DNA of 27,956 bases from Promethearchaeia archaeon (GCA_029856105.1 JAHQWH010000143.1:1-27956), one strand, 5' to 3'. Positions 3,102-27,775 are shown, numbered from the stretch's first letter. Translations and numbers: made by a program. The notes: a model not told the origin generated them from the sequence alone.

Positions 3102-5636
3102 ATGAAAAATAGCCATTTAAAATTATATTCCTTAGCGAAATTAAACTCATTAGAGATTTTAATAGAAGAACGTATTCAATATGTAGGATCAAATCAATCG
3201 AGGTTTTTTGAGAATTATATTAAAAACCAGAAAATTCTAAAACGAAAAGTATTCATTACAAAGATATTTAGTTCAGTTATTTTTAGTATTTTACCTTTAA
3301 TTCCTTTATTAACTTATTTTCAAATAGATGAAATTCTTATCGAGGACAATTACAGCATAGATACTATCGTATTTGTTGGAAACTTACTCTTTACTTTGTA
3401 TATTTTGCTCCAATTTTTAAATTTTTTTCTATTAGGCATATTTAGCACTTCTTTAATTATTTCTGGAAGAATTTTTAGATGGTATGAAACTTTTCCAATA
3501 TCCAGAGACAAATTAAAAAAAATAGTTTATTTAACAATATTTCGGACTTTAGATTTGCCAATTATTGTATCAATTTTCGCATTTCCTATAATATTTTTAG
3601 TGGGGACTCTAAATATTACAATGTTTTTTGTTTGTTTAGGAATTTCTTTTCTTAATTGCTTGTTATCCTTTAGTATACTTATATATATTAGTGAAAGAAT
3701 CAACCGTATTTTAGATATTAATGAAATAGGTTCTAAAAAAACACATGGTATTCGTTTATTTAATATGTTCAGCTACCTTGCAATCATTACTATTAGTGTT
3801 TATACAATCCAATGGGTTATTGGTTCTTTGGGTTTTTTTTTTGACTGGTTTACAAATATGGAAAACGCTTCGTTTATTAATTTGATTTTAAGCGTTATAA
3901 TTTATCCTTTTACACCTGGTTATGTAATCTCGTTATTTATTTCTCCAAGTGGCGTCCCTAATGAACTTTGGTTTACCACATTCCTTGGACTTGGTATATT
4001 GGTATTGTTAACAATTAGAATTTATAATAAAGCTCTTGATAACCTTGAAAAAACTACATATTCTAAATATAAAACAGATAAGAAAAATTTTATATCATTT
4101 TATGGCCGAAAGAAACAAAAATTAAATTTGAAGGTGGTTTCTCCGGTTAGTGCATTTATCCGTAAAGATTTACTTACTGCTTCAAGAGATATTAAAACTT
4201 TTATGTCCATGATAATGCCAATAGTTCTATCTTTTGTGTTTAAATTTTCATTTAATCTTAGTTTATTAGGAATTTCCGTTCCCATTGAATCAAAGTTAAT
4301 ATACGATTGGATGGTAATTATAGGTTTTAATGTTATTTTAGGAGCTACGATAATCTATAATCTAATAAATATTGAAGAGTCAGGAGAAACGATATTATCT
4401 TCCCTTCCCATTAATCCACGTGATCAAGCAAAAGCTAAATTGGTTTTGATGTTAATTATACAAACAGTTTCAGTAATATCTCCAAATTTAATGTATATTA
4501 TGGACCCCCAATTTTTTGACTATTTGATAACTTCTTTAGCAACTATACCCTTTATATGGATGTTTTTGTTTTTAATGTTCGAGATGAGAATTTATTATTT
4601 TGGGAAGATAAACAACCGGTATATTATTGGGGATATTGTCGCTGAAAATAAATTGTTTAAATGGATTCTAATTTTTTTAGCAAATTACTTCTTTTACTAC
4701 TGGTTAATGGTGTTTACTATTAATCTTTATTATTTTGATGACTTAAATAACCTGTTAGAAATATTAACTACTATTCTTATTATAAGTTTTTTCCTTGTTG
4801 CTTCTTTATTTAACTCAATGTTTCCCAAAAAATTAAATGAGGTTTTTAATGAAGAGAAAGCAAAGATATATGGAATTTCCGAAATTGATAAGGATGGAAC
4901 TCCAACATGGTTTACTAAACATATTTGGATATCTATTTTTTTACTTATAATTCTTTTTTATATTTTTGGAATTATATCTTATTTTATGATGTCTGTTTTT
5001 AGTCCTTTTTATCTTGAGTATCCATATAGCGGGAGTCATGATATATCAAAAATAACATCTCTATTGGTTTTTAATTTAACGTTTATGTTATTCTTATTCA
5101 TAGTTCCAAGAATACTAGGTTTACCAAGAGGTAAACATTCATTCCCATTATATTTAAATAATATTGGCTTAGGATGGCTTTATAAATCATTTAAGAAAGT
5201 AATGGTAGGAATTCTATTTTTAATTCTATTTTTGATTCTTTATTTCATAATATTCGGGATTTTTTTATATCCACAAGAAATAGAAGACCTTTTTTATTTC
5301 GATAGTTCATTATTTTTTTTAATATTTAACATATCGAGTCAATTTTGGTTTGAAATATTAATAAGAGGGATTATTTTTACCATGCTTTTAACGAAATATA
5401 GTGAAAAAAAGAGCCTTGTATTGAACGTTATAATTTATGTAATTATATATCAACTCCCAACTGTATTTTATGTAGAAAGGAATTACTTTTCTTATCTCTT
5501 TAATTTAATTTATATATTTATAATTGGATTAATTTTTGCTTTCATATTTCTTAAATCAAAAAGTATTCTTCCTGGAATGACTGTAATAATTTTGACAAGT
5601 GTTTTAGGAATAAGTATATTTTTTAATTTTTATTAA
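3102..5636 (+). CDS. Polytopic membrane protein: ABC-permease-like N-terminal region fused to a degenerate CPBP (Abi/CAAX protease)-like C-terminal domain
   Basis: Many TM segments; FIRKDLLTASRD and LSSLPINPRD resemble ABC-2-type permease motifs; C-terminal WFEILIRG and KSKSILPG resemble CPBP motifs. Confidence 0.55.
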   Translation: MKNSHLKLYSLAKLNSLEILIEERIQYVGSNQSRFFENYIKNQKILKRKVFITKIFSSVIFSILPLIPLLTYFQIDEILIEDNYSIDTIVFVGNLLFTLYILLQFLNFFLLGIFSTSLIISGRIFRWYETFPISRDKLKKIVYLTIFRTLDLPIIVSIFAFPIIFLVGTLNITMFFVCLGISFLNCLLSFSILIYISERINRILDINEIGSKKTHGIRLFNMFSYLAIITISVYTIQWVIGSLGFFFDWFTNMENASFINLILSVIIYPFTPGYVISLFISPSGVPNELWFTTFLGLGILVLLTIRIYNKALDNLEKTTYSKYKTDKKNFISFYGRKKQKLNLKVVSPVSAFIRKDLLTASRDIKTFMSMIMPIVLSFVFKFSFNLSLLGISVPIESKLIYDWMVIIGFNVILGATIIYNLINIEESGETILSSLPINPRDQAKAKLVLMLIIQTVSVISPNLMYIMDPQFFDYLITSLATIPFIWMFLFLMFEMRIYYFGKINNRYIIGDIVAENKLFKWILIFLANYFFYYWLMVFTINLYYFDDLNNLLEILTTILIISFFLVASLFNSMFPKKLNEVFNEEKAKIYGISEIDKDGTPTWFTKHIWISIFLLIILFYIFGIISYFMMSVFSPFYLEYPYSGSHDISKITSLLVFNLTFMLFLFIVPRILGLPRGKHSFPLYLNNIGLGWLYKSFKKVMVGILFLILFLILYFIIFGIFLYPQEIEDLFYFDSSLFFLIFNISSQFWFEILIRGIIFTMLLTKYSEKKSLVLNVIIYVIIYQLPTVFYVERNYFSYLFNLIYIFIIGLIFAFIFLKSKSILPGMTVIILTSVLGISIFFNFY

Positions 5637-5658
5637 ATTATAGAGATGATTAAGATAA

Positions 5659-6456
5659 ATGAGTATAAAGAATAATACTAAACCTCCTAATAAAAAAATT
5701 ACTACAAATTTGAAGGAACATTTATGGAGATCAATTGTAATAATAATAATATTAATTTCTTATATTTTGGTTGAATATTTAATCATTTTAATCTATAACC
5801 CTATTGATCAACTTTATTTCCTTGAGCATGATGAATTTTTATATCAATTGACTTTACTATTCTTTCTTCTAATTACAAACTTAATCTTTGGTTTGTTTTT
5901 AATCGGAGTTGTACCTAAGATATTAGGATTTCAATTAAATAAGCACTCTATTTCGCAATTTTTAGAAAAAATAGGATTAGGCTGGTTAAGATCAATATCA
6001 AAAGAAATTCTATTAGGTATTATTGCCGTTATCTTAATTTCTTTTGTCAATATTGTATATTTTTTGATTTTATTACCCGAATATCCATATTATCTTAGTT
6101 CTATTAACCACATTGTTTTTGAAACAATCTTTTTTTTAGGAATCTATTTCTGGAGTGAAATAACTTTTCGAGGGATCTTTTTATCAGTTTTAATGAAAAA
6201 ATATCGTAGTATAGTAGTAATTTTTTTGAATTCTTTTATTTATTTATTCTATTTTTACATAAAATTACTCATTTTTATAAACTTACAGATGTTTTTATCA
6301 TTTGAACTAATTATAGTTAGTTTTCTAATTTTTTTTTATGCTTTAATAAATAGTTACCTTTTTTTTAAGACAAATAGCCTTATCCCAGGTATAGTTTTGA
6401 ACACAGGGCTAATTCTAACTGGATTTCTTTTAGCTGATATTATAGTTATGATTTAA
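5659..6456 (+). CDS. Degenerate CPBP-family membrane protein, paralog of the C-terminus of the upstream gene
   Basis: WSEITFRG and KTNSLIPG motifs; it shares VP(R/K)ILG...IGLGWL with the upstream protein. Confidence 0.6.
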   Translation: MSIKNNTKPPNKKITTNLKEHLWRSIVIIIILISYILVEYLIILIYNPIDQLYFLEHDEFLYQLTLLFFLLITNLIFGLFLIGVVPKILGFQLNKHSISQFLEKIGLGWLRSISKEILLGIIAVILISFVNIVYFLILLPEYPYYLSSINHIVFETIFFLGIYFWSEITFRGIFLSVLMKKYRSIVVIFLNSFIYLFYFYIKLLIFINLQMFLSFELIIVSFLIFFYALINSYLFFKTNSLIPGIVLNTGLILTGFLLADIIVMI

Positions 6457-7354: not shown

Positions 7355-9133
7355 ATGAGTTTAGAGAGAAAGAAGTACAAAAGTTATAAAACTTGGCTCC
7401 TTCACCATCTTTACAAAAATAAATTCTTGATATTGTTTGTTATAATAGGTATTATAATTGTTACTTTTACAAGAACTCTCATACCTATAATTATTGGCGA
7501 GATTGTAGATGACGCGCTAATTGCTCTTGACTACGATATATTCATAAAGCTCATTATTATGGGGTTAGCAATTTATCTCATCCGTAATGTTATGGATTAT
7601 GTAACGATGATGACCGGCCACTATCTTGGTTTGAAAACCGAGCAAAATATAAGGCAAGAGTTTTTTGAGACTATCCAACATAAACCTTTAAGATATCACG
7701 ATAACGCTAAAGCTGGGGATTTGCAAGCCCTAGCAACCAATGATGTGCGTATAATCAATACGATGATTTCCCACGGAAGCTTTTTTTTCTATCCATTCTT
7801 TCAAGTGGCAATAACTTTGCTTCTCCTTATTACTACACTCGATATAAGATTAGCTTTAGCATGTATTCCTTTTATTTTTTTTTACATTTACTTTATTTTG
7901 TCTTATCGCAGAAAAATTGCACCTTTTGCTGCTAAAAGGTTGAGGAAACATTCAAATTTAGCAGTTGTATTACAGGATAGTATAACAGGTGCTTCTGTAG
8001 TCAGATCTTTTGCTGCGGAAGGTTTAGAACGAAAAAAATTTACGAAAGCAGTAAACGCTTTCAGAGATAACTCCATCGGAGAATATTTAGTGCAAGCAAA
8101 ATATTTTCCTATGTTAGTTCTATACATAACCATCGGAATTTCACTTATTTTTTGCCTTGTCTTTGTATTCCAGAATTCATTAACCATTGGAGAATTAGTT
8201 GCTACGAATCTACTTTTGATAACTCTTGTAGATCCAACTAACCTTATTTGGTGGGCTACAAATGATATGATGAGTGGGTTTGCGGCTTGTTCGCGCTTGT
8301 TTATAGCATTATCCAATGAGGATAACGAGGATCAAAGAATTAAGAATCAATCGTGGCCGAAGGAGTTCAAAGGAAAAATAGAATTTAGAGATATAACTTT
8401 TACATATGAGAATGGAGATAAAAATCGATCCCCTGTTCTGAAAAATCTCAATTTCGTAATCGAACCGAATCAAAAAGTTGCTCTTGTTGGTCCCACAGGG
8501 TGTGGCAAAACAACGATCGCAAAATTACTGCTCCTCCTTTATGAACCCCAACAAGGGACTATTTTGTTGGATGGAAAAAACATTCAGGATTATCCCCTTG
8601 AAGAACTAAGAAGAAAGATTGGATATATAGAGCAAGACATCTATTTGTTCTCGCAAACTATACTTGAAAATATCGCTTTTGGAAACCAAAATGCTAATCA
8701 CAACGAAATAATTAGCGTAGCAAAACTTGCTCAAGTTGATGATTTTGTGCAAAATTTCTCGGACGGATACAATACCGTTGTAGGTGAGAGGGGTACGCGG
8801 CTCTCAGGAGGAGAGAAACAGCGGGTGGCTATTGCTCGAGCTTTTTTAACTAATCCTGCCATGCTGATACTTGACGATTCGGTTTCTGCGATTGATAGTG
8901 AAACGGAGGAGAAGATTTGGCGAGCGATGGAAAATATAATAAAAAACAGAACTACTCTAATAATAACTCATCGCCTTCATACCATACGGACATCAGATAA
9001 AATTTTAGTTCTCAAGCACGGAAGAATTGTAGCAGAAGGAAATCACTCTGAATTATTTCAATCATCTGAAGATTATAGGCGAATTTTTGGGAAACGAGTT
9101 TCTTTATCAGATTTTAAAAGATATAACATTTAA
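7355..9133 (+). CDS. ABC exporter, fused TMD-NBD, heterodimer subunit with degenerate Walker B
   Basis: Walker A GPTGCGKT, signature LSGGEKQR, Walker B ILDD (E to D), H-loop ITHR. Confidence 0.93.
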   Translation: MSLERKKYKSYKTWLLHHLYKNKFLILFVIIGIIIVTFTRTLIPIIIGEIVDDALIALDYDIFIKLIIMGLAIYLIRNVMDYVTMMTGHYLGLKTEQNIRQEFFETIQHKPLRYHDNAKAGDLQALATNDVRIINTMISHGSFFFYPFFQVAITLLLLITTLDIRLALACIPFIFFYIYFILSYRRKIAPFAAKRLRKHSNLAVVLQDSITGASVVRSFAAEGLERKKFTKAVNAFRDNSIGEYLVQAKYFPMLVLYITIGISLIFCLVFVFQNSLTIGELVATNLLLITLVDPTNLIWWATNDMMSGFAACSRLFIALSNEDNEDQRIKNQSWPKEFKGKIEFRDITFTYENGDKNRSPVLKNLNFVIEPNQKVALVGPTGCGKTTIAKLLLLLYEPQQGTILLDGKNIQDYPLEELRRKIGYIEQDIYLFSQTILENIAFGNQNANHNEIISVAKLAQVDDFVQNFSDGYNTVVGERGTRLSGGEKQRVAIARAFLTNPAMLILDDSVSAIDSETEEKIWRAMENIIKNRTTLIITHRLHTIRTSDKILVLKHGRIVAEGNHSELFQSSEDYRRIFGKRVSLSDFKRYNI

Positions 9134-9145
9134 CGAGGTATCATA

Positions 9146-10963
9146 ATGGGACTCTATGCAGGAATGATGAACGAGGAACAGAAACGAGAATATTCCGATC
9201 GTGAACTACTGGTCAGGTATATTAGGAGAGTTGCACCGTTTAGGAAAAGCATAGTTCTAATCTCATTGTTAATCTTTATTACTACCATAGCTGAAACTGT
9301 AAATCCTCTTTTAATTGGAATTGCAATTGACGAACTTTCTAAAATTAACAGTAATCCTCTGATTGTATTGGAGGTAGGGGGGCTGTACTTTATTCTTTCT
9401 ATTCTACTTTGGATAATGTTTTTCTTACGGCGTAGAGAAATAGGAAAGTTTGTTCCCTTTTTTTTGGAAAAGCTCCGAATGAATACTTTTGATAAACTAC
9501 AAGAGCAAGACATGAGCTTTTTCGACAAGCATCTGAGCGGTAAACTAAATACCAGAGTATCTAACGATGCTTTAGATTTTGGGAATACTACGCTCCTATT
9601 AGCAGATACTCTCGGTAACTTTCTTATAAGTATATTGACCTTTGGAATGCTTCTATGGCTAAATCCGGCATTAGCTCTCATAACATTAATAGCTATTCCT
9701 TTCATCTTTTTATTAGTTCTGTCGCTTAGGCGGTTAGTTAGAATTGTTAGTAGAGCTTATAGAAAAGCAATTGGTAGTGTAAATGCTGCTATGGTTGAAT
9801 CAATAGAAGGGATACACGTATGTAAAAGTTATGGACAGGAATCTACTGTTTCAGAGCAATTTCAAGAAATTAACAAGCAATATTTTAAAGCAGGGTTTAG
9901 ATTAACGGCCGTAACTCATATGTGGAGGCCTCTACTGGAAACCATTGCTTCTATTATGCTCATTGTCATCATTTTTTTTGGAGGTCAATTTGTCTTTCAA
10001 GGTATAACTAATCCCGGAACAATTTTTATGTTTGTTCTTTATCTTCAGAAATTTTTCCGCCCTATAATGGTCCTCTCTGTATTTTTCCCTCAACTTAGCT
10101 CAGGAATGGCAGCATATGAGCGAATACTAGACATCCTTGATTCTGAACCAAATATAAGACAAAATCCAAACGCAATTGATATCGATACTTTAGAAGGAGA
10201 AATTATTTTCAAAGATGTCGACTTCTGCTATAGAGAAGGTGAATGGGTATTCAAAGGATTAAATCTGCACATAAAAAAGGGAGAAAAAATAGCTATTGTG
10301 GGCCACACAGGGGCTGGGAAAACTTCATTGATATCGCTTTTAGCTCGATATTATGAGTTTCAAGGGGGATCAATTGAAATTGATGGAATTGACATTAGGG
10401 ACATGTCTTTAAATTCTTATAGAAGAAAACTAGGGAATGTACAGCAAGAAGTTTTTTTGTTTTCAGGTACTATAGAAGAAAATATTCGATATGGCAGACA
10501 AGAAGCTTCAGAAGATGATCTCTGGAAGGCAATTAATACTGTGCACCTCGAAGAACTAATCGAATACCTACCGGAAGGGTTGCAAACACAGATCGGTGAG
10601 AGGGGAAAAGGACTTTCGGCAGGTCAACAGCAACTAGTTAGTTTTGCTCGAGCAATATTGACTGATCCGCGGATTCTAATTCTTGACGAAGCCACATCGA
10701 GCGTTGATGCGTATACTGAAGCAATTATTCAAGAAGCTCTTGAAGTTCTATTAGCAAATCGTACTTCGATTGTTATTGCACATAGGCTCTCAACAATCGT
10801 GAATGCTGATAGAATAATTGTGATGGATAAAGGGCAAATCGCTGAAGAGGGTACTCATAATACTTTACTCGAACAAGGAGGAAAATATGCCAAGCTGTAT
10901 AAACAATTTTTTGAGCATCAAAGTCTAGACTGGGTGCCAAATCAGGGGTCTTTTAAAATTTAA
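9146..10963 (+). CDS. ABC exporter, fused TMD-NBD, second heterodimer subunit
   Basis: GHTGAGKT, degenerate signature LSAGQQQL, ILDEATSSVD, IAHRL; TM287/288-like asymmetry with the upstream gene. Confidence 0.93.
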   Translation: MGLYAGMMNEEQKREYSDRELLVRYIRRVAPFRKSIVLISLLIFITTIAETVNPLLIGIAIDELSKINSNPLIVLEVGGLYFILSILLWIMFFLRRREIGKFVPFFLEKLRMNTFDKLQEQDMSFFDKHLSGKLNTRVSNDALDFGNTTLLLADTLGNFLISILTFGMLLWLNPALALITLIAIPFIFLLVLSLRRLVRIVSRAYRKAIGSVNAAMVESIEGIHVCKSYGQESTVSEQFQEINKQYFKAGFRLTAVTHMWRPLLETIASIMLIVIIFFGGQFVFQGITNPGTIFMFVLYLQKFFRPIMVLSVFFPQLSSGMAAYERILDILDSEPNIRQNPNAIDIDTLEGEIIFKDVDFCYREGEWVFKGLNLHIKKGEKIAIVGHTGAGKTSLISLLARYYEFQGGSIEIDGIDIRDMSLNSYRRKLGNVQQEVFLFSGTIEENIRYGRQEASEDDLWKAINTVHLEELIEYLPEGLQTQIGERGKGLSAGQQQLVSFARAILTDPRILILDEATSSVDAYTEAIIQEALEVLLANRTSIVIAHRLSTIVNADRIIVMDKGQIAEEGTHNTLLEQGGKYAKLYKQFFEHQSLDWVPNQGSFKI

Positions 10964-10986
10964 AGATTTAAAATTAATTGAGTATT

Positions 10987-13026
10987 TTATAAAGAAATCT
11001 GTGTAGTGAGTAAATCTTCATTTTTTGATGAAGCTCCAATGTAAATGGTATATTCGATTCTCTCGACTTCCCATACTCTATTATCAGGATTATACCATGC
11101 AAAATCTTTTTTCCTCACATCAATGGATACAGTTTTTGTTTCTTTAGGTTTTAAGGCAACTCTCTTAAATCCACGTAACAGTTTTAGGGGCCGATCAACG
11201 CTAGATTTCTCAAACCCTACATATAATTGTACAATCTCTTCACCTGCAATAGCTCCAATGTTCGAAATATCCACGCTAACAATAATTTTCTCTTCAGTTG
11301 ATTCTACTCGGATATTTTTGTATGAGTATTCAGTATAACTCAACCCAAATCCAAAAGGAAATGCTGGTTCTCGGCGTTCCTTTTCCATCAAAGTATATCC
11401 GTGATAATAACCGTATTCAATCTCGTCAACATATATGTCAAAGAATGGTAAATGAGCGGGATCTGTAGGGATTGTAAGAGGTAATTTTCCGCTTGGGTTA
11501 ACTGCTCCAAAAAGGATGTCAGCTAGAGCGTTTCCTCCTTCCATACCTGAATACCAAGCCATTAAAATAGCGGGGACTCTTGTTCTCCATTCTTCCATGA
11601 GAATAGCGCTCCCCCCAATAAGTACAACTACGCATTTTTGATTAACTTGTGAAACTGCATTAATTAATTTAATTTCTTTCTCTCTTAGACCAAGATTAAT
11701 GCGATCTCCTAATCCCTTTGAAATAATTGGAATATATTCGCCCTCATCCTTATAGGTGTAACCAACCATTAATACTACCGCATCTACGCTTTGAGCAATC
11801 TGTTGAGCAACTTCAAGATCGCTACCATCGTTATGTATTATTTTTACTTTATCACCGAATCTATTTTCTAAACCGTGTAAAGGCGTCACAATATTATTTT
11901 GGCGCACGTGACTGCTTCCGTGATCACCCGTATTTTTTAAATCGGCTAATGGACCAATTACTGCTAAAGTATCAACTTCTTTAGAAGTAAAAGGTAATAT
12001 TTTATCTTTATTTTTAAGCAAGACCATGCTCTTCTCTGCAACTTTGCGAGCTAAAAGAACATGATCATCGCAACCGATTAAAGTAGGATCGTAATTTTGA
12101 GAGTCTTCTTTAGTAGTAAATCTTAACACTGTGCGGATTATTCGCTTTGCGGATTCTTCTATTAATTTTAAAGGAACTTTTCCTTGTTTCACTGCTTTTT
12201 CTAGTTTTCTTCCGTAATATTTTGCACGGGGCATTTCAACATCTAAGCCTCCCATGACTCCACCAATGGTATCGTGGACTCCATTCATCCAATCCGAATG
12301 CACAAAACCTTCAAACCCCCATTCACCTTTTAGTATATCTCTTAACAAAGGAGCATTATGACCACAGTACTCGCCGCGAACTTTATTATACGCTGACATG
12401 ACTGTAGCACAATTTTCCTCGATACAACGCTTAAAATGAGGAAGATAGACTTCTCGTAATGTTCGTTCGTCTAATTGTACATCAACTTTAAATCGCGAAT
12501 GTTCTATGCTATTAACAATATAGTGTTTAACTGTGGCCATAACATTATGTTTTTGTACGCCACGTATCAAAGCAGCCCCAAATTCACCAAGATGAAAGGG
12601 ATCTTCGCCGTATGTTTCTTGAGCTCGACCCCACGCGGGATGTCGCAAAAGATTTACACATACACCTCCAAAAAGATTTCCTCCATGAGCACGTGCTTCT
12701 TTACCGATAACTTCACCCACCTCTTCTTCGAGTTTAATATCCCACGAAGCCCCTCGGGCCATGGATACAGGGAAACAAGTAGAGCCGGGCATCATTACAC
12801 CCCTCGGACCATCTGTAAATAAGAATGGAGGTATACCTAATCGTTTAACGCCCCCACCTGGATAAGCACGCACGCCGAACTTTCGATCTTTTAGCAACAA
12901 CATAAAGAAATGTTTCCCCGACATTATATCAACCTTTTCTTTTAATGTCATTTCGGTTAAAGCATAATCTGCATATTCGTCTATTTCTCTATCTGACATT
13001 CCTTTTTTGATTTTATATTTTATCAT
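10987..13026 (-). CDS. Glycoside hydrolase family 3 beta-glucosidase-like enzyme with C-terminal Fn3-like domain
   Basis: TDGPRG, WGRAQETYGEDP, VKHY, SDW nucleophile, FPFGFGLSYT, GEEIVQLY, LRGFKRV. Confidence 0.95.
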   Translation of the reverse strand: MIKYKIKKGMSDREIDEYADYALTEMTLKEKVDIMSGKHFFMLLLKDRKFGVRAYPGGGVKRLGIPPFLFTDGPRGVMMPGSTCFPVSMARGASWDIKLEEEVGEVIGKEARAHGGNLFGGVCVNLLRHPAWGRAQETYGEDPFHLGEFGAALIRGVQKHNVMATVKHYIVNSIEHSRFKVDVQLDERTLREVYLPHFKRCIEENCATVMSAYNKVRGEYCGHNAPLLRDILKGEWGFEGFVHSDWMNGVHDTIGGVMGGLDVEMPRAKYYGRKLEKAVKQGKVPLKLIEESAKRIIRTVLRFTTKEDSQNYDPTLIGCDDHVLLARKVAEKSMVLLKNKDKILPFTSKEVDTLAVIGPLADLKNTGDHGSSHVRQNNIVTPLHGLENRFGDKVKIIHNDGSDLEVAQQIAQSVDAVVLMVGYTYKDEGEYIPIISKGLGDRINLGLREKEIKLINAVSQVNQKCVVVLIGGSAILMEEWRTRVPAILMAWYSGMEGGNALADILFGAVNPSGKLPLTIPTDPAHLPFFDIYVDEIEYGYYHGYTLMEKERREPAFPFGFGLSYTEYSYKNIRVESTEEKIIVSVDISNIGAIAGEEIVQLYVGFEKSSVDRPLKLLRGFKRVALKPKETKTVSIDVRKKDFAWYNPDNRVWEVERIEYTIYIGASSKNEDLLTTQISL

Positions 13027-21667: not shown

Positions 21668-21977
21668 AAAACAGAAATATTATTTGTTAAGAAATTACAT
21701 CACAATTCAAACTCTTTTGAATCTCATACTTTCTAATGTAAAAATCACAAATTATTAATTTTATGATTCATTTTTGTTATTACTAACACCTATTTGCTTT
21801 AAGGATACTTTATTATGTTCAAATTAGTTCAATTTATCAAACTCAATCTAAATAATCGTGGTGTGTGTGTCTGTGTCGCTTTCTAACGGCTTGAGTTCTT
21901 ATTAGAAATAAGAATTAAAAATAAAATCAAAAATAAAATAAAATAAGTCGAGGGCGTGTTCATAACCCCACAGGACG

Positions 21978-22322
21978 GGCACAAAACTTATGCGAAAGCA
22001 CTCCAAAGTACGTAATATCGATCGGGCTTAATTACGACGGAATTCACGATTTCGCCCCTTACGAGAAGTTAGACCAGAAAGCAGAAAGAATCTCCGATTT
22101 TAGCAATTTAGCAAAGGAATCGGTTATGTTTGGGACCGATTGGATTTATAATTTTAACAATCTCGAGAATAACGAGCTTTTAGAAAAAAAAGATGATATT
22201 TGGGACGAATACAAACCAAAAGACCAAATTTTTGAAATTTACAAGCTCGTAGACATGAGCGAGAATAACCCTAAGTTTTCCGAACTATTCTACGAAATTA
22301 GGCACAAAACTTATGCGAAAGC
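21978..22322. repeat. 22-bp exact direct repeat GGCACAAAACTTATGCGAAAGC (21978-21999 and 22301-22322)
   Basis: Read directly from the sequence; the two copies lie in different reading frames. Confidence 0.88.
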
Positions 22323-25300
22323 TTGGGAAGAATACAAACTTCAATTAACAGGAGATATAATCGAACAAGTATTTATGTCTGTTACAGCTTCTCTTCTTAG
22401 CGCAGCCGTCGAAGCAGCTATTACTGCCGTCACAGTAGGAACTGGCTGGTCAGCTGCCAAAGCTGCAGCTACTTTAACCTATGTAGCTGTATACACATTA
22501 ATGACAAAGTTTAGCATCGATAGGAAACTTCACGAAGCGGAGTCTAAAGAACGCTCCAAGACCTTCTATCCCGCCTCTGACGTGAAAGTAGAGCCCGAAT
22601 ATCTCAACGAGAAATGTATATACGATAGGGTTCTCCAAGACACGATGGCAGCAGCGCTTCTTGGGCACCCAGGAGGCTTCTACCAAACGGTGAGCGGTGA
22701 CGAGCCCGGTAATTCGTACACCGGTCATTTAGTGGTAAGTCCTCCCAACCTAGCCCGCGTATTAAGCTCGTTCGGCGGATTTTTAGACTTACTCTGGGAA
22801 AATTTCTGGAACGCAGGAGAATCGGACCCTGACTCCTACACCGCCCTCGATTTCGACGACCTAAACTTGGATTACTTGCTAACGACCAGCGAGTTGCCCT
22901 TCTACAACACAAAAACTTATTACACCTACCACAACACGGAGTTTGTTTTCGACACTTACAACATGTATTCCTACAACACTTTAGGCGCTCTCGAAACTCA
23001 AGTATTGGAAGGTTCGAGCGGTCAATTCGACGCGATCAGACCTACCTGCATAGATGGCGCTCCACAATACGAGTTTATCAATAGTACGCTTTATAACACG
23101 GTTCTACCGCAGCAAATTCTGTACGGACCAGTCGTGTTAAGCCAGACTAGGTACGATCAGATTAAACCCGCTTTGGGTCGACTTACTGTGAAAGTTCGAT
23201 GCAAAGACTACGATAAAACGCTGGGAATCAACCCTTACGCCATGAACGAGATAGAGCAAGAAGTTTACGAGGCTAAAGTACCGCTTAACGACAACGGCTT
23301 CGAATACCCGATTAGATACGTTTACATTGACGTGGTAAACTACGACGTGTTCGAAGGAACTAATTATTTTGCTCAAGATTTGCTGGTTAACGAGTCAGAT
23401 TACGCGATAGATTGCGGCAACCTTTACTTTACCAAGTCTCTCGAAGGAATTATTTCGGAAAAATATTCGGGTTTCGAAGAGTTTCTATCCGAAACTTGGG
23501 CTAGCGACTTGATTAAGTCTACTATATATTACAATGTTCGCGTAGTTTTCGATAGGTTCGTTCCCGACACCACGGACGAGACCAATAACCTAGCTTTAGC
23601 TCAAGCGACCTCTTACGCAATTATGGACTATTTTAACCAGTATACTTACGCGGAGATCAGCGCCAATATGATTTCTGAGGTTACCTACACCGAGACTTTA
23701 ACTTTTTGGTCTACTTTAATCAGCGCCCCGCTCGTCTATTTCGGTTCTTGGGCCGTTTCTGCTGGGGTTGGAAAAATGTTCGGGGAGGCAGGTTCTAAAG
23801 CCGTTCAAGCAACACTACAAAAGTCAATAATGGGAGGTCTCGTTGGAACGGTGGTAAGCCCCATTAAAGAAGTGTTCCAAGAAATCATTGAGGACGGGTT
23901 TAAAGAAGCGTTAATAGAAAACTTGGTAAGCATCGCGGGAGGAACGGACGATTTAGGCTTCTGGTTATCGTCGCTAAGCACTTCCGTTAGAGAGGTTAAA
24001 GGCGCGTTAGGGCAACTTACTTTTGGAGAGACTAACCTAAAAAATACTTTTACGCTTATTCACGCCATATCTTCGGGAGACATCGATACCAGGTTAGAAT
24101 TTGAGCAGAGAATCGCGCAAGACTTAAAGCAAAGACAAGAAGCAGAAAAAGCTAAGCAAGCGCAGATGAGTTTCTGGGACAATATGCTCAAGACCGACTT
24201 ATTGAAAGGACTTTTCATGGTAATACCGTCGATCTTTTTCGGCTCTTTTAGTTTTATTGCGCTATCTGGTTTTAATAAAATGGTAACGAGCTCAATTAAG
24301 CTCTCTCCGGCGGCATACGCGGAACACGCTTCGTGGAAGCACAGTAGGAGGAAGAAAGACACGATAAAAGCGGTTGGAACCCAAAGAGCTTTCTCTTCAG
24401 GTCGTATATTTACCGATAGAGTTTTAGGAGCAACGAAAAAGCCCGCCGAGCTAGAGTCAGTAGCTTCAGATATCAACAACGAATTTAAAGACGAACAAGA
24501 AACTGGAATCTTACCCCCGCCTCAAACTGCTCAAATACCTACGACCAATCCTAATCCAAAAACTGAAACGAGAAAAATACTTGCTGATAAATTTAACACG
24601 ATTGCGTTTGAAAACTATTTTAACGAGTGGATTGAAGGATATATATTTAGCGACGAGAGATTTAAAGCTTTTAAATCGGAGTTCAAACAAGTTCAGCAAA
24701 ATTATAGAGAAATTGGATTTCAAAAAGCGGAGAAAGATGCGATTGATATCATCAAAAACGCGCTTAAAGAGGATAAATTCAACCTAAGATTCCTTAACAT
24801 GTTCGGTGTGGAGTTTTACGATCCCGATTTTATTTTAATTGGCGCTTCTGGTCCTAGCACTAGGACGGAAGGCTCTCAATTATTGAAGCAGAATGCTTTT
24901 GAAGCGAAGATGACCACTTTAGACAAAGTAAACGAAATTAAGGGCTATTTCGGCGTGAGCGGCGATTATGCGATGTATGTTAAAGTGAGAGACGATCAAC
25001 TCATCTCCATCCCTGTAGATAGTGAGACAAATCTTGCAAATTGGTTAACAGACAACCATCACAGTATCGATAGCAAGATTTACGTAGCACCGAGTTCCCT
25101 TACTATTGAAGAATTCCATACTCTCGACAACTGGCAAGATCACCCCTCTTACGTTTTACAAGATAATATAAAAAGTTTGTTTTCAATAGAATTCGATAAA
25201 GAATTTTACCAATTACTAGAAATTTCCGAAGGTATTTTTGGATACCATAATAACAAGTTAAAAAAGAGCCTTAACTCTCTTTTCACTGACCGTACTCTTT

Positions 25301-26688
25301 ATCAATGGTTATTTAAAGTTGAGAACCATCCCGCAATAACTGGCGAGAATAAAAGAACTTTTCAAACATTAATAATGAATTATAGAGCAGATAATGGGTT
25401 ACAATATCAAGATCCTGCAATCGATACTTTAGTAGGAGCTCTTAGAATGGCCGTTCAGCACGAGGATGGTTTCGATACTCCATCTGACCGTAAACTAAGT
25501 GACTTTTTTAATTTTGATCCTACTATAAAGATTTTCAGGAAAGGAGCCCGAAGTATCCTATTCCAACAAGATCATGTGCTTAAGCTAGTTTACGGTTTAT
25601 ACAGAAGAAGTTCTGCTCGATTTATTTTGAACAATTTTGGCAAGACTACTGTTTTAGACGAGGGAAGAACATCTCTAGCTGTTAGAAAAGCTTTATTAGC
25701 TATTAATCAATATTGTGAATCAAAAGATAGTATTAATTTTGGTGAAGCTCCACCGCTTCAAAGGTTGATAACAGCATGTAGTTGGCACCTATCAGATATT
25801 CATAATGGAGGAAATTATTATATAAGATCTGAATTAGCAGGTTTATTCGGTTTAGAGATTCATATTATTGACAAGTATCTTACTGGAGTTTCCAGAAATG
25901 TAAAGAATATGGATTTTATTGAAAGAATCCGAGATTTAGTGTCAGACTTGAAAGAAGACTTAAACAGAGACCAGAGTGCCGTTTTAGGAGAGTTATATAG
26001 AAGATTCTATGCTTATAACTCCAGATCCTTTTCAGGGGTTCACAGAGCTCTTGGCGATCTCACTCTTTCTGACATATACGATTCTTCAAGGGAAGATTAC
26101 ACTTCTAGATGGTTTAATCCAGATGTTGCAGCCAAACATTACGTTGAATTGCTTCTTAAACAAGGCGGATTGTTGCCCGCTGGGAGGAGAGGAGAAGGAG
26201 CTGATAATTACGACGTCTCACTTTTTAAGGCTAGACACCATATTGATTTCTATAAACCTTCTATTGATCCATTAAATCTTATTCTTTTAGGAAACTTGCA
26301 TTATAATTTTATAAACCACGAAGCAAAAGGTGATTTAGATTACTATACGCGTATGCGTTACATGCGCGATAGTTTCGAAAATGCAATACCCCCGTCCTGT
26401 TGGGAATCAAATTTGCAAGACCTTTACATAGAACGCCTTAAGGAATTTATTATTGGATGGGAAAACGATAGAGTTATTCAATATACAAAACAAGGACCTC
26501 CAACCTATGAATTTGTTGATGGAGAGTGGGTAATCGTAGATATAAAAATTGATTTTATTAAAATGAACTATAAAGGAAAAACATATGACCTACAGGGAAT
26601 GCTCGAAAAAGGGTGGATTACAGAAGACTGGGTTAGTAGCATCATACAAGATTTAAGGCAAAAATTAGAAAGTAGAGGATTGATGTAA
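22126..26688 (+). CDS. Large multidomain protein, probably a 5'-truncated giant protein, with hydrophobic Gly/Ala-rich segments and a C-terminal HNH-like nuclease motif (polymorphic-toxin-like)
   Basis: The frame stays open upstream to 21937 without an ATG. TM-like segments at ~22375-22510, ~23700-23870 and ~24210-24270; Pro-rich linker at ~24511-24560; RHHIDFYKPSIDPLNLILLGNLH at ~26233-26301. Confidence 0.6.
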   Translation: MFGTDWIYNFNNLENNELLEKKDDIWDEYKPKDQIFEIYKLVDMSENNPKFSELFYEIRHKTYAKAWEEYKLQLTGDIIEQVFMSVTASLLSAAVEAAITAVTVGTGWSAAKAAATLTYVAVYTLMTKFSIDRKLHEAESKERSKTFYPASDVKVEPEYLNEKCIYDRVLQDTMAAALLGHPGGFYQTVSGDEPGNSYTGHLVVSPPNLARVLSSFGGFLDLLWENFWNAGESDPDSYTALDFDDLNLDYLLTTSELPFYNTKTYYTYHNTEFVFDTYNMYSYNTLGALETQVLEGSSGQFDAIRPTCIDGAPQYEFINSTLYNTVLPQQILYGPVVLSQTRYDQIKPALGRLTVKVRCKDYDKTLGINPYAMNEIEQEVYEAKVPLNDNGFEYPIRYVYIDVVNYDVFEGTNYFAQDLLVNESDYAIDCGNLYFTKSLEGIISEKYSGFEEFLSETWASDLIKSTIYYNVRVVFDRFVPDTTDETNNLALAQATSYAIMDYFNQYTYAEISANMISEVTYTETLTFWSTLISAPLVYFGSWAVSAGVGKMFGEAGSKAVQATLQKSIMGGLVGTVVSPIKEVFQEIIEDGFKEALIENLVSIAGGTDDLGFWLSSLSTSVREVKGALGQLTFGETNLKNTFTLIHAISSGDIDTRLEFEQRIAQDLKQRQEAEKAKQAQMSFWDNMLKTDLLKGLFMVIPSIFFGSFSFIALSGFNKMVTSSIKLSPAAYAEHASWKHSRRKKDTIKAVGTQRAFSSGRIFTDRVLGATKKPAELESVASDINNEFKDEQETGILPPPQTAQIPTTNPNPKTETRKILADKFNTIAFENYFNEWIEGYIFSDERFKAFKSEFKQVQQNYREIGFQKAEKDAIDIIKNALKEDKFNLRFLNMFGVEFYDPDFILIGASGPSTRTEGSQLLKQNAFEAKMTTLDKVNEIKGYFGVSGDYAMYVKVRDDQLISIPVDSETNLANWLTDNHHSIDSKIYVAPSSLTIEEFHTLDNWQDHPSYVLQDNIKSLFSIEFDKEFYQLLEISEGIFGYHNNKLKKSLNSLFTDRTLYQWLFKVENHPAITGENKRTFQTLIMNYRADNGLQYQDPAIDTLVGALRMAVQHEDGFDTPSDRKLSDFFNFDPTIKIFRKGARSILFQQDHVLKLVYGLYRRSSARFILNNFGKTTVLDEGRTSLAVRKALLAINQYCESKDSINFGEAPPLQRLITACSWHLSDIHNGGNYYIRSELAGLFGLEIHIIDKYLTGVSRNVKNMDFIERIRDLVSDLKEDLNRDQSAVLGELYRRFYAYNSRSFSGVHRALGDLTLSDIYDSSREDYTSRWFNPDVAAKHYVELLLKQGGLLPAGRRGEGADNYDVSLFKARHHIDFYKPSIDPLNLILLGNLHYNFINHEAKGDLDYYTRMRYMRDSFENAIPPSCWESNLQDLYIERLKEFIIGWENDRVIQYTKQGPPTYEFVDGEWVIVDIKIDFIKMNYKGKTYDLQGMLEKGWITEDWVSSIIQDLRQKLESRGLM

Positions 26689-26769
26689 AGTCAATAATAA
26701 TATCACAAATTATTAAATCTTAGTACAGCTATGATTAAATTATAAACAATTACTTTTTTTTATTTAACA

Positions 26770-27630
26770 ATGAAAAATATAAGAGAATTAAATTCTAAGG
26801 ATTTAGAAGGTTTAAATTCTGAGGAATATTATCATCTTATGGAATTAGACGACTTGATATGCAGCAATCTCAAAGGGGGGCAGGTTGGTGATTCGAGTCC
26901 GATCTATCTTGAGATTGAAAGCGGGTGTATCGTTAAACTTGATTTGGTTTCGTGTCGTTTGCCCTCGGTCCCTCGTGTTGTTTGGGAGTTTAAGATGCTA
27001 AAAGATTTAGATTTGGATAGAAACGCGATTGAAACTTTTCCCAATACAATTGAGAAACTAGAATTCTTAGAAGTTTTAAGCATATCTGATAATAAGCTAA
27101 GTGTTTTTCCTGAGTCGATAACAAAGGTTACCTCTCTGCAAAGCCTAAATTTGGCGAATAACAACATCGTTTCAATGCCGAGTTCGATTGGACATTTAAA
27201 AAATCTCCGTCATCTTGCCTTGACCAATAATCGGCTTAAAACGCTACCCGAGTCAATAGGGGGGCTGATATCTTTAAAGACATTCTACTTGAAAGAAAAT
27301 GAACTGGAAAAACTACCAGAAGGTTTTGGAGGTTTAAAAAGTTTAAAAGAATTTTCTATTAGAAATAATCGGTTAAAAACAATCCCCGTGTCGATTGGAA
27401 ATCTTAAGAACTTGAGCTACTTAGATTTATCAAACAATTGTTTGGAGAAATTACCTGACACAATCGGGGAAATGGAGTCGTTAAGTACTCTTTGGTTAGG
27501 GGGGAACGGATTAAAGAAATTACCTGATTCTATTACTAAGTTAAAGTCGATAAAGACGATACGACTAAAAGGAAACCCTTTAGTCTCCATTCCAGACGGT
27601 CTAATAAAGGAATCTATTAAAATCCTTTGA
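26770..27630 (+). CDS. Leucine-rich repeat protein (~10 x 23-aa repeats)
   Basis: Repeated LxxLxLxxNxLxxLPxxIGxL. Confidence 0.95.
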   Translation: MKNIRELNSKDLEGLNSEEYYHLMELDDLICSNLKGGQVGDSSPIYLEIESGCIVKLDLVSCRLPSVPRVVWEFKMLKDLDLDRNAIETFPNTIEKLEFLEVLSISDNKLSVFPESITKVTSLQSLNLANNNIVSMPSSIGHLKNLRHLALTNNRLKTLPESIGGLISLKTFYLKENELEKLPEGFGGLKSLKEFSIRNNRLKTIPVSIGNLKNLSYLDLSNNCLEKLPDTIGEMESLSTLWLGGNGLKKLPDSITKLKSIKTIRLKGNPLVSIPDGLIKESIKIL

Positions 27631-27700
27631 GTTTCGATTGAGTTTCGAGATTATTTTTTTCTTTCCATAAATTATTAATTTTATGCTTCTTTTTCATTAG

Positions 27701-27754
27701 CAATATTAACTATTATTAATAACAATATTAACTATTATTAATAACAATATTAAC
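27701..27754. repeat. Tandem repeat, 22-bp unit CAATATTAACTATTATTAATAA x ~2.5
   Basis: Read directly from the sequence, upstream of rpo7. Confidence 0.9.
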
Positions 27755-27775
27755 AAAAATAACGGGTGCAATGAA

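Follow-up and report, generated by a model that had tools for sequence, protein, structure and literature searches.

What is the role of a 1520-residue protein encoded directly ahead of a leucine-rich repeat (LRR) gene in an Asgard archaeon? The question is raised by a stretch of 27,956 nucleotides (nt) from a Promethearchaeia archaeon (GCA_029856105.1, JAHQWH010000143.1:1-27956), which was analyzed at its full length and is called the window here. Its GC content is ~30% and its gene content is Asgard-like, with one Ras-family GTPase gene and two Roadblock/LC7 genes. Toward its right end, the plus strand carries an open reading frame (ORF) of 1520 amino acids (aa) at 22126-26688, encoding P0001, and, 81 nt past the stop codon on the same strand, an LRR gene encoding P0002. 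Both genes lie where an original prediction, made from the sequence alone, had placed them. That prediction took the pair for a possible Asgard toxin-immunity system, in which a giant protein with an HNH-like tip would be neutralized by its LRR partner. We find that the ORF is the truncated end of a much larger gene, that relatives of this gene carry variable C-terminal tips with tip-specific neighbors, and that the pair occupies an insertion. The reading toward which we lean is that of an orphan 3' cassette, with candidate toxicity, from an Asgard-specific surface-protein system of the polymorphic toxin/immunity type, resembling contact-dependent inhibition (CDI).

The large ORF and the giant gene family

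The large ORF does not correspond to a complete gene. A search of 5.8 billion proteins gave 31 relatives of P0001, and in tblastn comparisons with these, family homology in the window starts at 21994-22012, 41 to 44 codons before the ATG; from 21994 to 22125 the translated frame contains no ATG, GTG or TTG. In G008, a 100% complete genome of the same genus, contig C24 carries a single open frame of 13,858 codons, encoding 13,847 aa from the first start codon, and the window frame aligns with residues 12,277-13,847 of this giant at 55% identity. Because homology precedes the ATG with no start codon, and because the frame aligns with the C-terminal end of the G008 giant, we conclude from these alignments that the ORF is 5'-truncated. 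Only the last ~11% of the giant gene (~1,570 codons) is retained in the window. The G008 giant terminates in the same tip, and an LRR gene of 286 aa follows it after 78 nt. What had been described as a whole giant protein is thus the 5'-truncated end of a 13,847-aa gene type. The features of the pair are as follows.

21994-22125, plus strand: in-frame codons of the giant family ahead of the first start codon (tblastn; the frame aligns from residue 12,277 of the G008 giant)
22126-24546, plus strand: conserved distal core of the giant family, P0001 residues 1-807 (alignments with relatives)
22366-22449, 23713-23772 and 24193-24276, plus strand: hydrophobic Gly/Ala-rich helices of the core (hydrophobicity)
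24547-24561, plus strand: NPNPK junction motif, residues 808-812 (many relatives are unrelated beyond it, and the orphan tip P0062 begins there)
24562-26688, plus strand: variable C-terminal region, residues 813-1520 (whole length shared with P0004, P0007 and the G008 giant; shared with P0021 from residue ~985)
26068-26490, plus strand: RHH domain, residues ~1315-1455, a candidate beta-beta-alpha-metal nuclease (invariant HH, K and H; predicted topology)
26770-27630, plus strand: LRR partner gene, 286 aa, P0002 (LRR_8, E 9e-47; 81 nt past the stop of the large ORF)

Other members of the family are in keeping with a much longer gene. In 17 of the 31 relatives, the alignment with query residues 1-2 begins only 100-950 residues into the sequence of the relative. 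On the JGI contig L007, an ORF of 3025 aa and the 1219-aa P0004, which lie 124 nt apart, jointly span the family, and both L007 and L011 carry upstream parts of several thousand aa. The giant genes of these two contigs are each split into two long ORFs at differing positions, with gaps of 124 nt (L007 9877-10001) and 186 nt (L011 6472-6658); the splits could reflect a frameshift, a sequencing error or an intron. Headless paralogs also occur elsewhere in the genome from which the window comes (G000), on contigs C114 (1403 aa), C107 (1416 aa) and C10/C26 (1041 aa). The C10 and C26 copies (L017 7533-10655 and L018 4177-7302) are identical and represent a distant paralog with 29% identity to the hydrophobic core region. 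In each, residues 685-765 match LAGLIDADG_3/LAGLIDADG_1; either a genomic repeat or duplication during assembly may explain why there are two such contigs. At G000:C114, an RVT_N domain of a group II intron-type reverse transcriptase (E 5e-27; L015 8815-9240) ends where the 1403-aa headless copy begins.

The sequence features that had been claimed for P0001 are present. Three Gly/Ala-rich hydrophobic segments were located at residues ~81-108, 530-549 and 690-717, the Pro-rich linker ends in NPNPK at residues 808-812, and the HNH-like string RHHIDFYK..NLILLGNLH lies at residues 1370-1392. Between the hydrophobic segments, the core comprises a beta-rich domain (residues ~250-510) and conserved amphipathic helices. 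Within these helices are an acidic ladder, E582-x3-E586-x3-D590-x3-E594 (window 23869-23907), and a second motif, T619-S620-x-R622-E623, both invariant in 28/28 aligned relatives. Neither P0001 nor its parts gave any match in sequence or profile searches of Pfam, PHROGs, NCBIfam and the PDB. A structure model of the core (residues 1-830) reached a pLDDT of 51, and structure searches with it were empty. Beyond NPNPK, the variable region is all-alpha to residue ~1300, with a helix-turn-helix (HTH)-like segment; the RHH domain comes next, and a small beta/alpha domain closes the protein.

Relatives with a named source come from metagenome-assembled genomes (MAGs) of Thor-, Prometheo-/Loki-, Odin- and Hermodarchaeota and from sediment and subsurface metagenomes; judged by these homology searches, the family is Asgard-specific. 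In the G008 giant, a transmembrane (TM) cluster of ~6-7 helices lies at residues 650-894, a long region rich in N-glycosylation sequons follows, and hydrophobic segments occur at ~11,910, 12,403-12,445 and 13,034. At E<=0.001, Pfam gives no family for the 13,847-aa protein and LAGLIDADG_3 alone for 27 relatives, and these searches likewise returned none of the known trafficking or release modules (type V, VI and VII secretion, Rhs, HINT, signal peptide). Sequon counts, drawn on window 22126-26688, L007 800-9877 and the G008:C24 giant, show enrichment in the stalk (38 observed versus 25.8 expected) and depletion in the distal 1,500 aa (2 versus 10.8, p=0.001), a pattern that is weakly suggestive of a distal part exposed yet kept unmodified.

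Variable tips, partner genes and the RHH domain

If this were a polymorphic system, homologs should share the stalk but differ in their C-termini and in the genes that follow, and both differences were found. Alignment with the query stops at residues 811-864, just past NPNPK, in 10 relatives and at residues 987-1015 in 8 further ones. Beyond the divergence point lie 170-950 aa that are unrelated or 20-35% identical, depending on the tail class. NPNPK or NPDPR stands directly ahead of the divergence point in 17 sequences and is distinct from the junction motifs VENN and PxxxxDPxGL; indeed, the orphan P0062 starts at the NPNPK junction. The downstream gene changes with the class of tip. Tails of the window type are followed by a gene for an LRR protein of 285-287 aa, the tails of P0006, P0013, P0019, P0030 and the own-genome paralogs on C114 and C107 (6 loci) by a gene for a 95-148-aa member of a Zn-ribbon family, and the tail of P0017 by a gene for a protein of 202 aa. 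These partner genes gave zero matches to known immunity families. Two other tip classes, as well as the C10/C26 paralog, contain LAGLIDADG_3 above the Pfam cut-off.

The linkage of the LRR gene to homologs of the large ORF, also part of the original prediction, is borne out by its persistence. At 11/11 loci, representing at least 7 alleles, the RHH tip is adjoined by an LRR gene, and the LRR proteins all belong to a single subfamily and share their N-terminal cap (the loci inspected were the window, C94, L007, L008, G008, L052, L053/L054, L025, L026 and L027). Chance adjacency of tip and LRR gene would be expected at ~1% per locus, because LRR_8 ORFs number only ~21 in the 3.66 Mb of the own genome. 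Tip identity correlates with LRR identity (r=0.94), a value that plain linkage would give as well. P0002 itself has ~9-10 LRRs behind the conserved cap (MKNIR.L....EYY.L.ELD); its repeats are short and of the bacterial type, with 22-23 residues and best matches to LRR_8 and to LRRs of the type found in effectors of the type III secretion system, and no signal peptide or TM segment was found in it. From its sequence and position, P0002 is a candidate cognate immunity or binding protein.

The tip itself contains the motif R1370-H1371-H1372...K1377...H1392, encoded at 26233-26301, in which 21 aligned relatives show no variation at HH, K or the final H. A HMMER search with residues 1010-1520 defined a domain of ~200 aa in 33 representative proteins, with the pattern VELLIxQxGxxPxG...RHHIxFxK...LILLGxLH...LDYY..MR..F...PP..W. 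An AlphaFold2 model of the same residues (pLDDT 87.9) places a strand at 1369-1372 ending in HH, a 12-residue loop with K1377, a second strand (LILL) at 1385-1388 and a helix that begins at L1391 and includes H1392, so that the motif is predicted to have a beta-beta-alpha layout. Aligned by hhalign with seven PF01844 domains from related genomes, it falls into the canonical HNH register, but with P=0.19. In the relative P0045, the same HTH-like region is followed by two Cys-rich HH...CxNCH modules, which resemble PF01844-type HNH (hhalign P 0.0075) and so lend the HNH assignment some indirect support; comparison of the RHH domain with these modules by hhalign was not significant. A weak HTH_3 hit was obtained in the relative P0050. 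Of the proposed HNH tip, then, the predicted topology stands, the motif is conserved in HH, K and the last H but not at the Asn position, and no search gave a significant profile or fold match. A nuclease tip is plausible; that the RHH domain is an HNH member is tentatively suggested by motif, hhalign register and modeled topology.

An insertion between Roadblock and rpo7

The surroundings of the pair mark it as an insertion, delimited by the following features.

21746-21794, no strand assigned: left copy of a Roadblock-rpo7 spacer element present twice, core CAYAAATTATTAATTTTATG; bounds the insertion on the left (direct repeat)
21795-21993, plus strand: non-coding left end of the insertion (no giant-family homology, tRNA or Rfam match)
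21978-21999, plus strand: exact 22-nt repeat GGCACAAAACTTATGCGAAAGC, identical to 22301-22322; the first copy ends at the start of family homology
27666-27714, no strand assigned: right copy of that spacer element; bounds the insertion on the right (direct repeat)
27785-27956, plus strand: 5' part of rpo7 (collinear with the L052 gene carrying SHS2_Rpb7-N and S1)

In four genomes of the same genus (G005, G002, G012 and G008), Roadblock is directly followed by rpo7, the spacer element is single-copy and the segment 21795-27665 is absent. In G005, the closest of them (87% nt identity), window position 21779 abuts 27720. The two copies of the element in the window form a direct repeat of 49 nt that is 78% identical, the first ~23 nt being near-identical. 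By these comparisons, the ORF and LRR gene together constitute a 5.9-kb insertion bounded by duplicated spacer; the insert contains the headless ORF and the LRR gene only, and no integrase or transposase gene was found within it. Neither a tRNA nor an Rfam family was found in the window, which thus offers no tRNA-type attachment site. The two copies of GGCACAAAACTTATGCGAAAGC differ in reading frame, and the genome has no further copy; scarring at the junction, template switching or an assembly artefact could account for the repeat. The spacer just ahead of rpo7 also contains, beside the duplicated element, three tandem 22-nt units resembling TTATTAATAACAATATTAACTA (27691-27756).

The same Roadblock-rpo7 site is occupied in a more distant MAG with this gene neighborhood. 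At L052 (GCA_013375475.1; 6001-7296), a tip remnant of 121 aa precedes an intact LRR gene of 286 aa, and the DNA at this site is collinear with the window at 70% identity, versus 73-76% in the flanks. Because this site is occupied while that of the closest relative, G005, is empty, either repeated insertion or precise loss must have occurred. Decay is seen elsewhere, too. On contig C94 of the own genome, an N-terminal scrap of 80 aa is joined out of frame to a 205-aa tip, after which comes an intact LRR gene, and L008 has a headless copy of 940 aa with its LRR gene. By analogy, decayed tips beside intact LRR genes look like orphan immunity genes. No orphan cassettes were found downstream of the intact G008 giant.

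The P0001 ORF has a GC content of 43% against ~30% for the window, but this is set aside as evidence of foreign origin, since it tracks the coding of Gly/Ala-rich segments and declines in the 3' direction. A viral or tape-measure protein was considered and dropped in view of the empty PHROG searches, the cellular flanks and the N-terminal TM anchor of the full-length protein. Elsewhere in the window, two ABC exporter genes and a GH3 glycosidase gene (7355-13026) form a block of 35-40% GC amid ~25-30% GC, which may have been horizontally acquired, and two adjacent genes (3102-6456) encode membrane proteins (844 and 265 aa) that each end in a weak Rce1-like CAAX protease domain.

Explanations of the locus and known systems

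How might such a cassette have functioned? In the toxin/immunity-type reading, a full-length member of ~13,800 aa would have a cytoplasmic head, followed by the TM cluster that would anchor the protein in its producer. A sequon-rich stalk of ~11,000 aa would then form a glycosylated filament, at the far end of which the amphipathic and hydrophobic Gly/Ala helices would insert into or cross a membrane. Past the NPNPK-type junction would come the exchangeable C-terminal tip, each class with its own small downstream gene. The tip encoded in the window would combine an HTH-like helical part with the RHH domain acting as an HNH-like metal nuclease, and the cytoplasmic LRR protein would bind and neutralize it. 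The window copy itself is most likely unable to deliver a tip, because anchor and stalk are absent; its present roles would probably be protection from tip-bearing neighbors, for which the LRR gene would be kept, and a reservoir for tip exchange by recombination. What survives of the original prediction, then, is the toxin-immunity-like system, with variable tips, class-specific neighbors and LRR linkage. The window copy as a working giant toxin does not, since it is an inserted, truncated orphan.

Several observations weigh against this reading. The Asn position of HNH varies (N/D/E/V/Q) across the aligned relatives, and the RHH domain found nothing in Pfam or NCBIfam at E<=10, Tox-HNH clade models included, or among PDB profiles. 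Foldseek and VIA searches gave no significant match either, though these used the whole 511-residue model, which is too large for a small motif and dominated by helices. In the G008 giant and the partner genes alike, no known toxin, secretion, protease-release or immunity domain was found. Many tips are not unrelated cassettes but show weak homology over their full length. At three distant loci of other architectures (P0047, P0056 and P0062), the LRR gene is adjacent yet convergent or divergent, and such non-co-directional arrangement is unusual for toxin-immunity operons. The hydrophobic segments close to the C-terminus could send the tip back into the cytoplasm of the producer. Finally, the own assembly (92% complete) has no full-length carrier: apart from the 80-aa scrap on C94, it contains no N-terminal part of a giant.

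The missing toxin domains and the position of the hydrophobic segments could also be explained by a receptor or adhesin anchored at both ends, whose HTH and RHH tail would serve in its own cytoplasm as a signaling or DNA-binding output, with the LRR or Zn-ribbon protein as regulator and tail variability as a means of kin or partner recognition. We regard this as unlikely. Three to four TM-like segments between stalk and tail, HTH-like helices in the tail (with the HTH_3 hit in P0050) and cytoplasmic partners, one class of which is a Zn ribbon with a basic N-terminus, are all to be expected of such a receptor. However, it ill fits the headless copies, the decayed tips with intact LRR genes and a cassette flanked by direct repeats that is present in some genomes and absent from others. 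LAGLIDADG nuclease domains in other tips also speak against it, as does the depletion of distal sequons, which suggests exposure to glycosylation machinery and selection against modification.

Another alternative is a selfish, homing-type cassette, in which the tip would be a module like a homing endonuclease that promotes its own copying, with the 3' ends of giant genes among its targets beside other sites. The neighbor gene would modulate it or hitch-hike, and the giant would be only a landing pad. HTH together with HNH-like and LAGLIDADG domains recalls the classic homing-endonuclease families; the 5.9-kb presence/absence polymorphism is precise, with duplicated-element borders and no integrase; the headless C114 copy abuts the RVT_N fragment; and an exact 22-nt repeat marks the truncation point. 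Yet the tips are in frame with a membrane or surface protein, behind a conserved junction motif, and the insertion carried along ~1,570 carrier codons, well beyond the tip alone. Moreover, a partner gene that diverges along with its tip, and is still there once the tip has decayed, behaves as an immunity gene does, and homing endonucleases need none. We judge a homing-type cassette to be improbable. Still more doubtful, in our estimate, is that the 1520-codon frame and the LRR gene are merely a decaying pseudogene, left over recently from a giant gene and now functionless. The headless copy without a start codon at the homology boundary, the absence of a full-length carrier from the own assembly and the progressive decay at related loci would all be accounted for, but a stop-free frame of 4.5 kb in DNA of 35-43% GC, with the invariant core residues kept, points to recent or continuing constraint, and the LRR gene is intact at every locus, even where the tip is reduced to 121-205 aa.

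Should the toxin/immunity-type reading be right, a lineage-specific system of cell-cell conflict would exist in the closest prokaryotic relatives of eukaryotes, on a carrier unrelated to the bacterial ones. It would give a function to some of the largest archaeal "dark-matter" genes (13,800 aa, no known domain), define a new nuclease-like domain family with a dedicated LRR partner family, and offer a view of how cassettes of tip and partner spread and decay. More tentatively, we propose that several Asgard phyla may have evolved independently a contact-dependent weapon, comprising a self-anchored glycosylated filament of ~14,000 aa with a membrane-active distal module, RHH/HNH-like or LAGLIDADG tips swapped at NPNPK, LRR or Zn-ribbon immunity, and cassettes that move to unrelated sites. 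For annotation, the practical consequence is that the many "hypothetical proteins" of 1,000-2,500 aa that MAGs contribute to the giant family derive from a single giant gene type, as fragments or as headless copies.

Giant genes as such have been described in Asgard archaea, among them the aloposon Otus/Ephialtes and other "unrelated giant genes", with truncated fragments elsewhere in the genome (Wu et al. 2022, PMC8813620), and archaeal proteins of >10,000 aa have been reported in a preprint (West-Roberts et al. 2023, 10.1101/2023.11.21.568195). The present family shares with these the ORFs of several thousand residues and differs in its variable tips with cognate partners, which are not described there. 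A literature search found no paper joining Asgard archaea, polymorphic toxins and LRR immunity. What the window adds is the truncated, inserted form, together with evidence on tip-LRR linkage and cassette mobility.

The pairing of an LRR solenoid with a putative nuclease also recalls eukaryotic ribonuclease inhibitor and RNase A-family proteins, but only the generic LRR fold is shared, and the repeats of P0002 are short and bacterial in type. The original prediction saw here a link to eukaryote-type LRR recognition; such a link is not needed, as Imm-LRR is already a named immunity class in bacterial polymorphic toxin systems, whose toxin tips commonly belong to xHH clades of the HNH fold (Zhang et al. 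2012, PMC3482391). The Rhs/YD-repeat toxins of the same survey resemble the Asgard family in having a variable nuclease-type tip with an HH motif, an adjacent LRR partner and displaced tips kept with their immunity genes. They differ in that the Asgard family has neither YD/Rhs repeats nor a HINT or protease release domain, and in that its RHH domain matches no Tox-HNH clade model.

There is also a likeness to CdiA-CT/CdiI. In both, the surface filament is very long, the tip is preceded by a hydrophobic or translocation-type region, a junction motif stands ahead of the variable part (VENN there, NPNPK here), a cognate gene lies directly downstream, and 5'-truncated orphan cassettes of tip and partner occur. 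Unlike CdiA with its partner CdiB, the Asgard giant has no two-partner secretion (TPS) domain, FHA repeats, CdiB partner, VENN motif or Pfam hit in its 13,847 aa. The carrier appears to be self-anchored in the archaeal membrane by its N-terminal TM cluster, its variable part extends over 500-950 aa, and its orphans are scattered rather than arrayed downstream of the main gene. By sequence, the family belongs to neither CdiA nor Rhs, although it may work like CDI. In architecture, its carrier, its junction motif, its variable tip, its cognate neighbor and its orphans each have a counterpart in polymorphic toxin systems.

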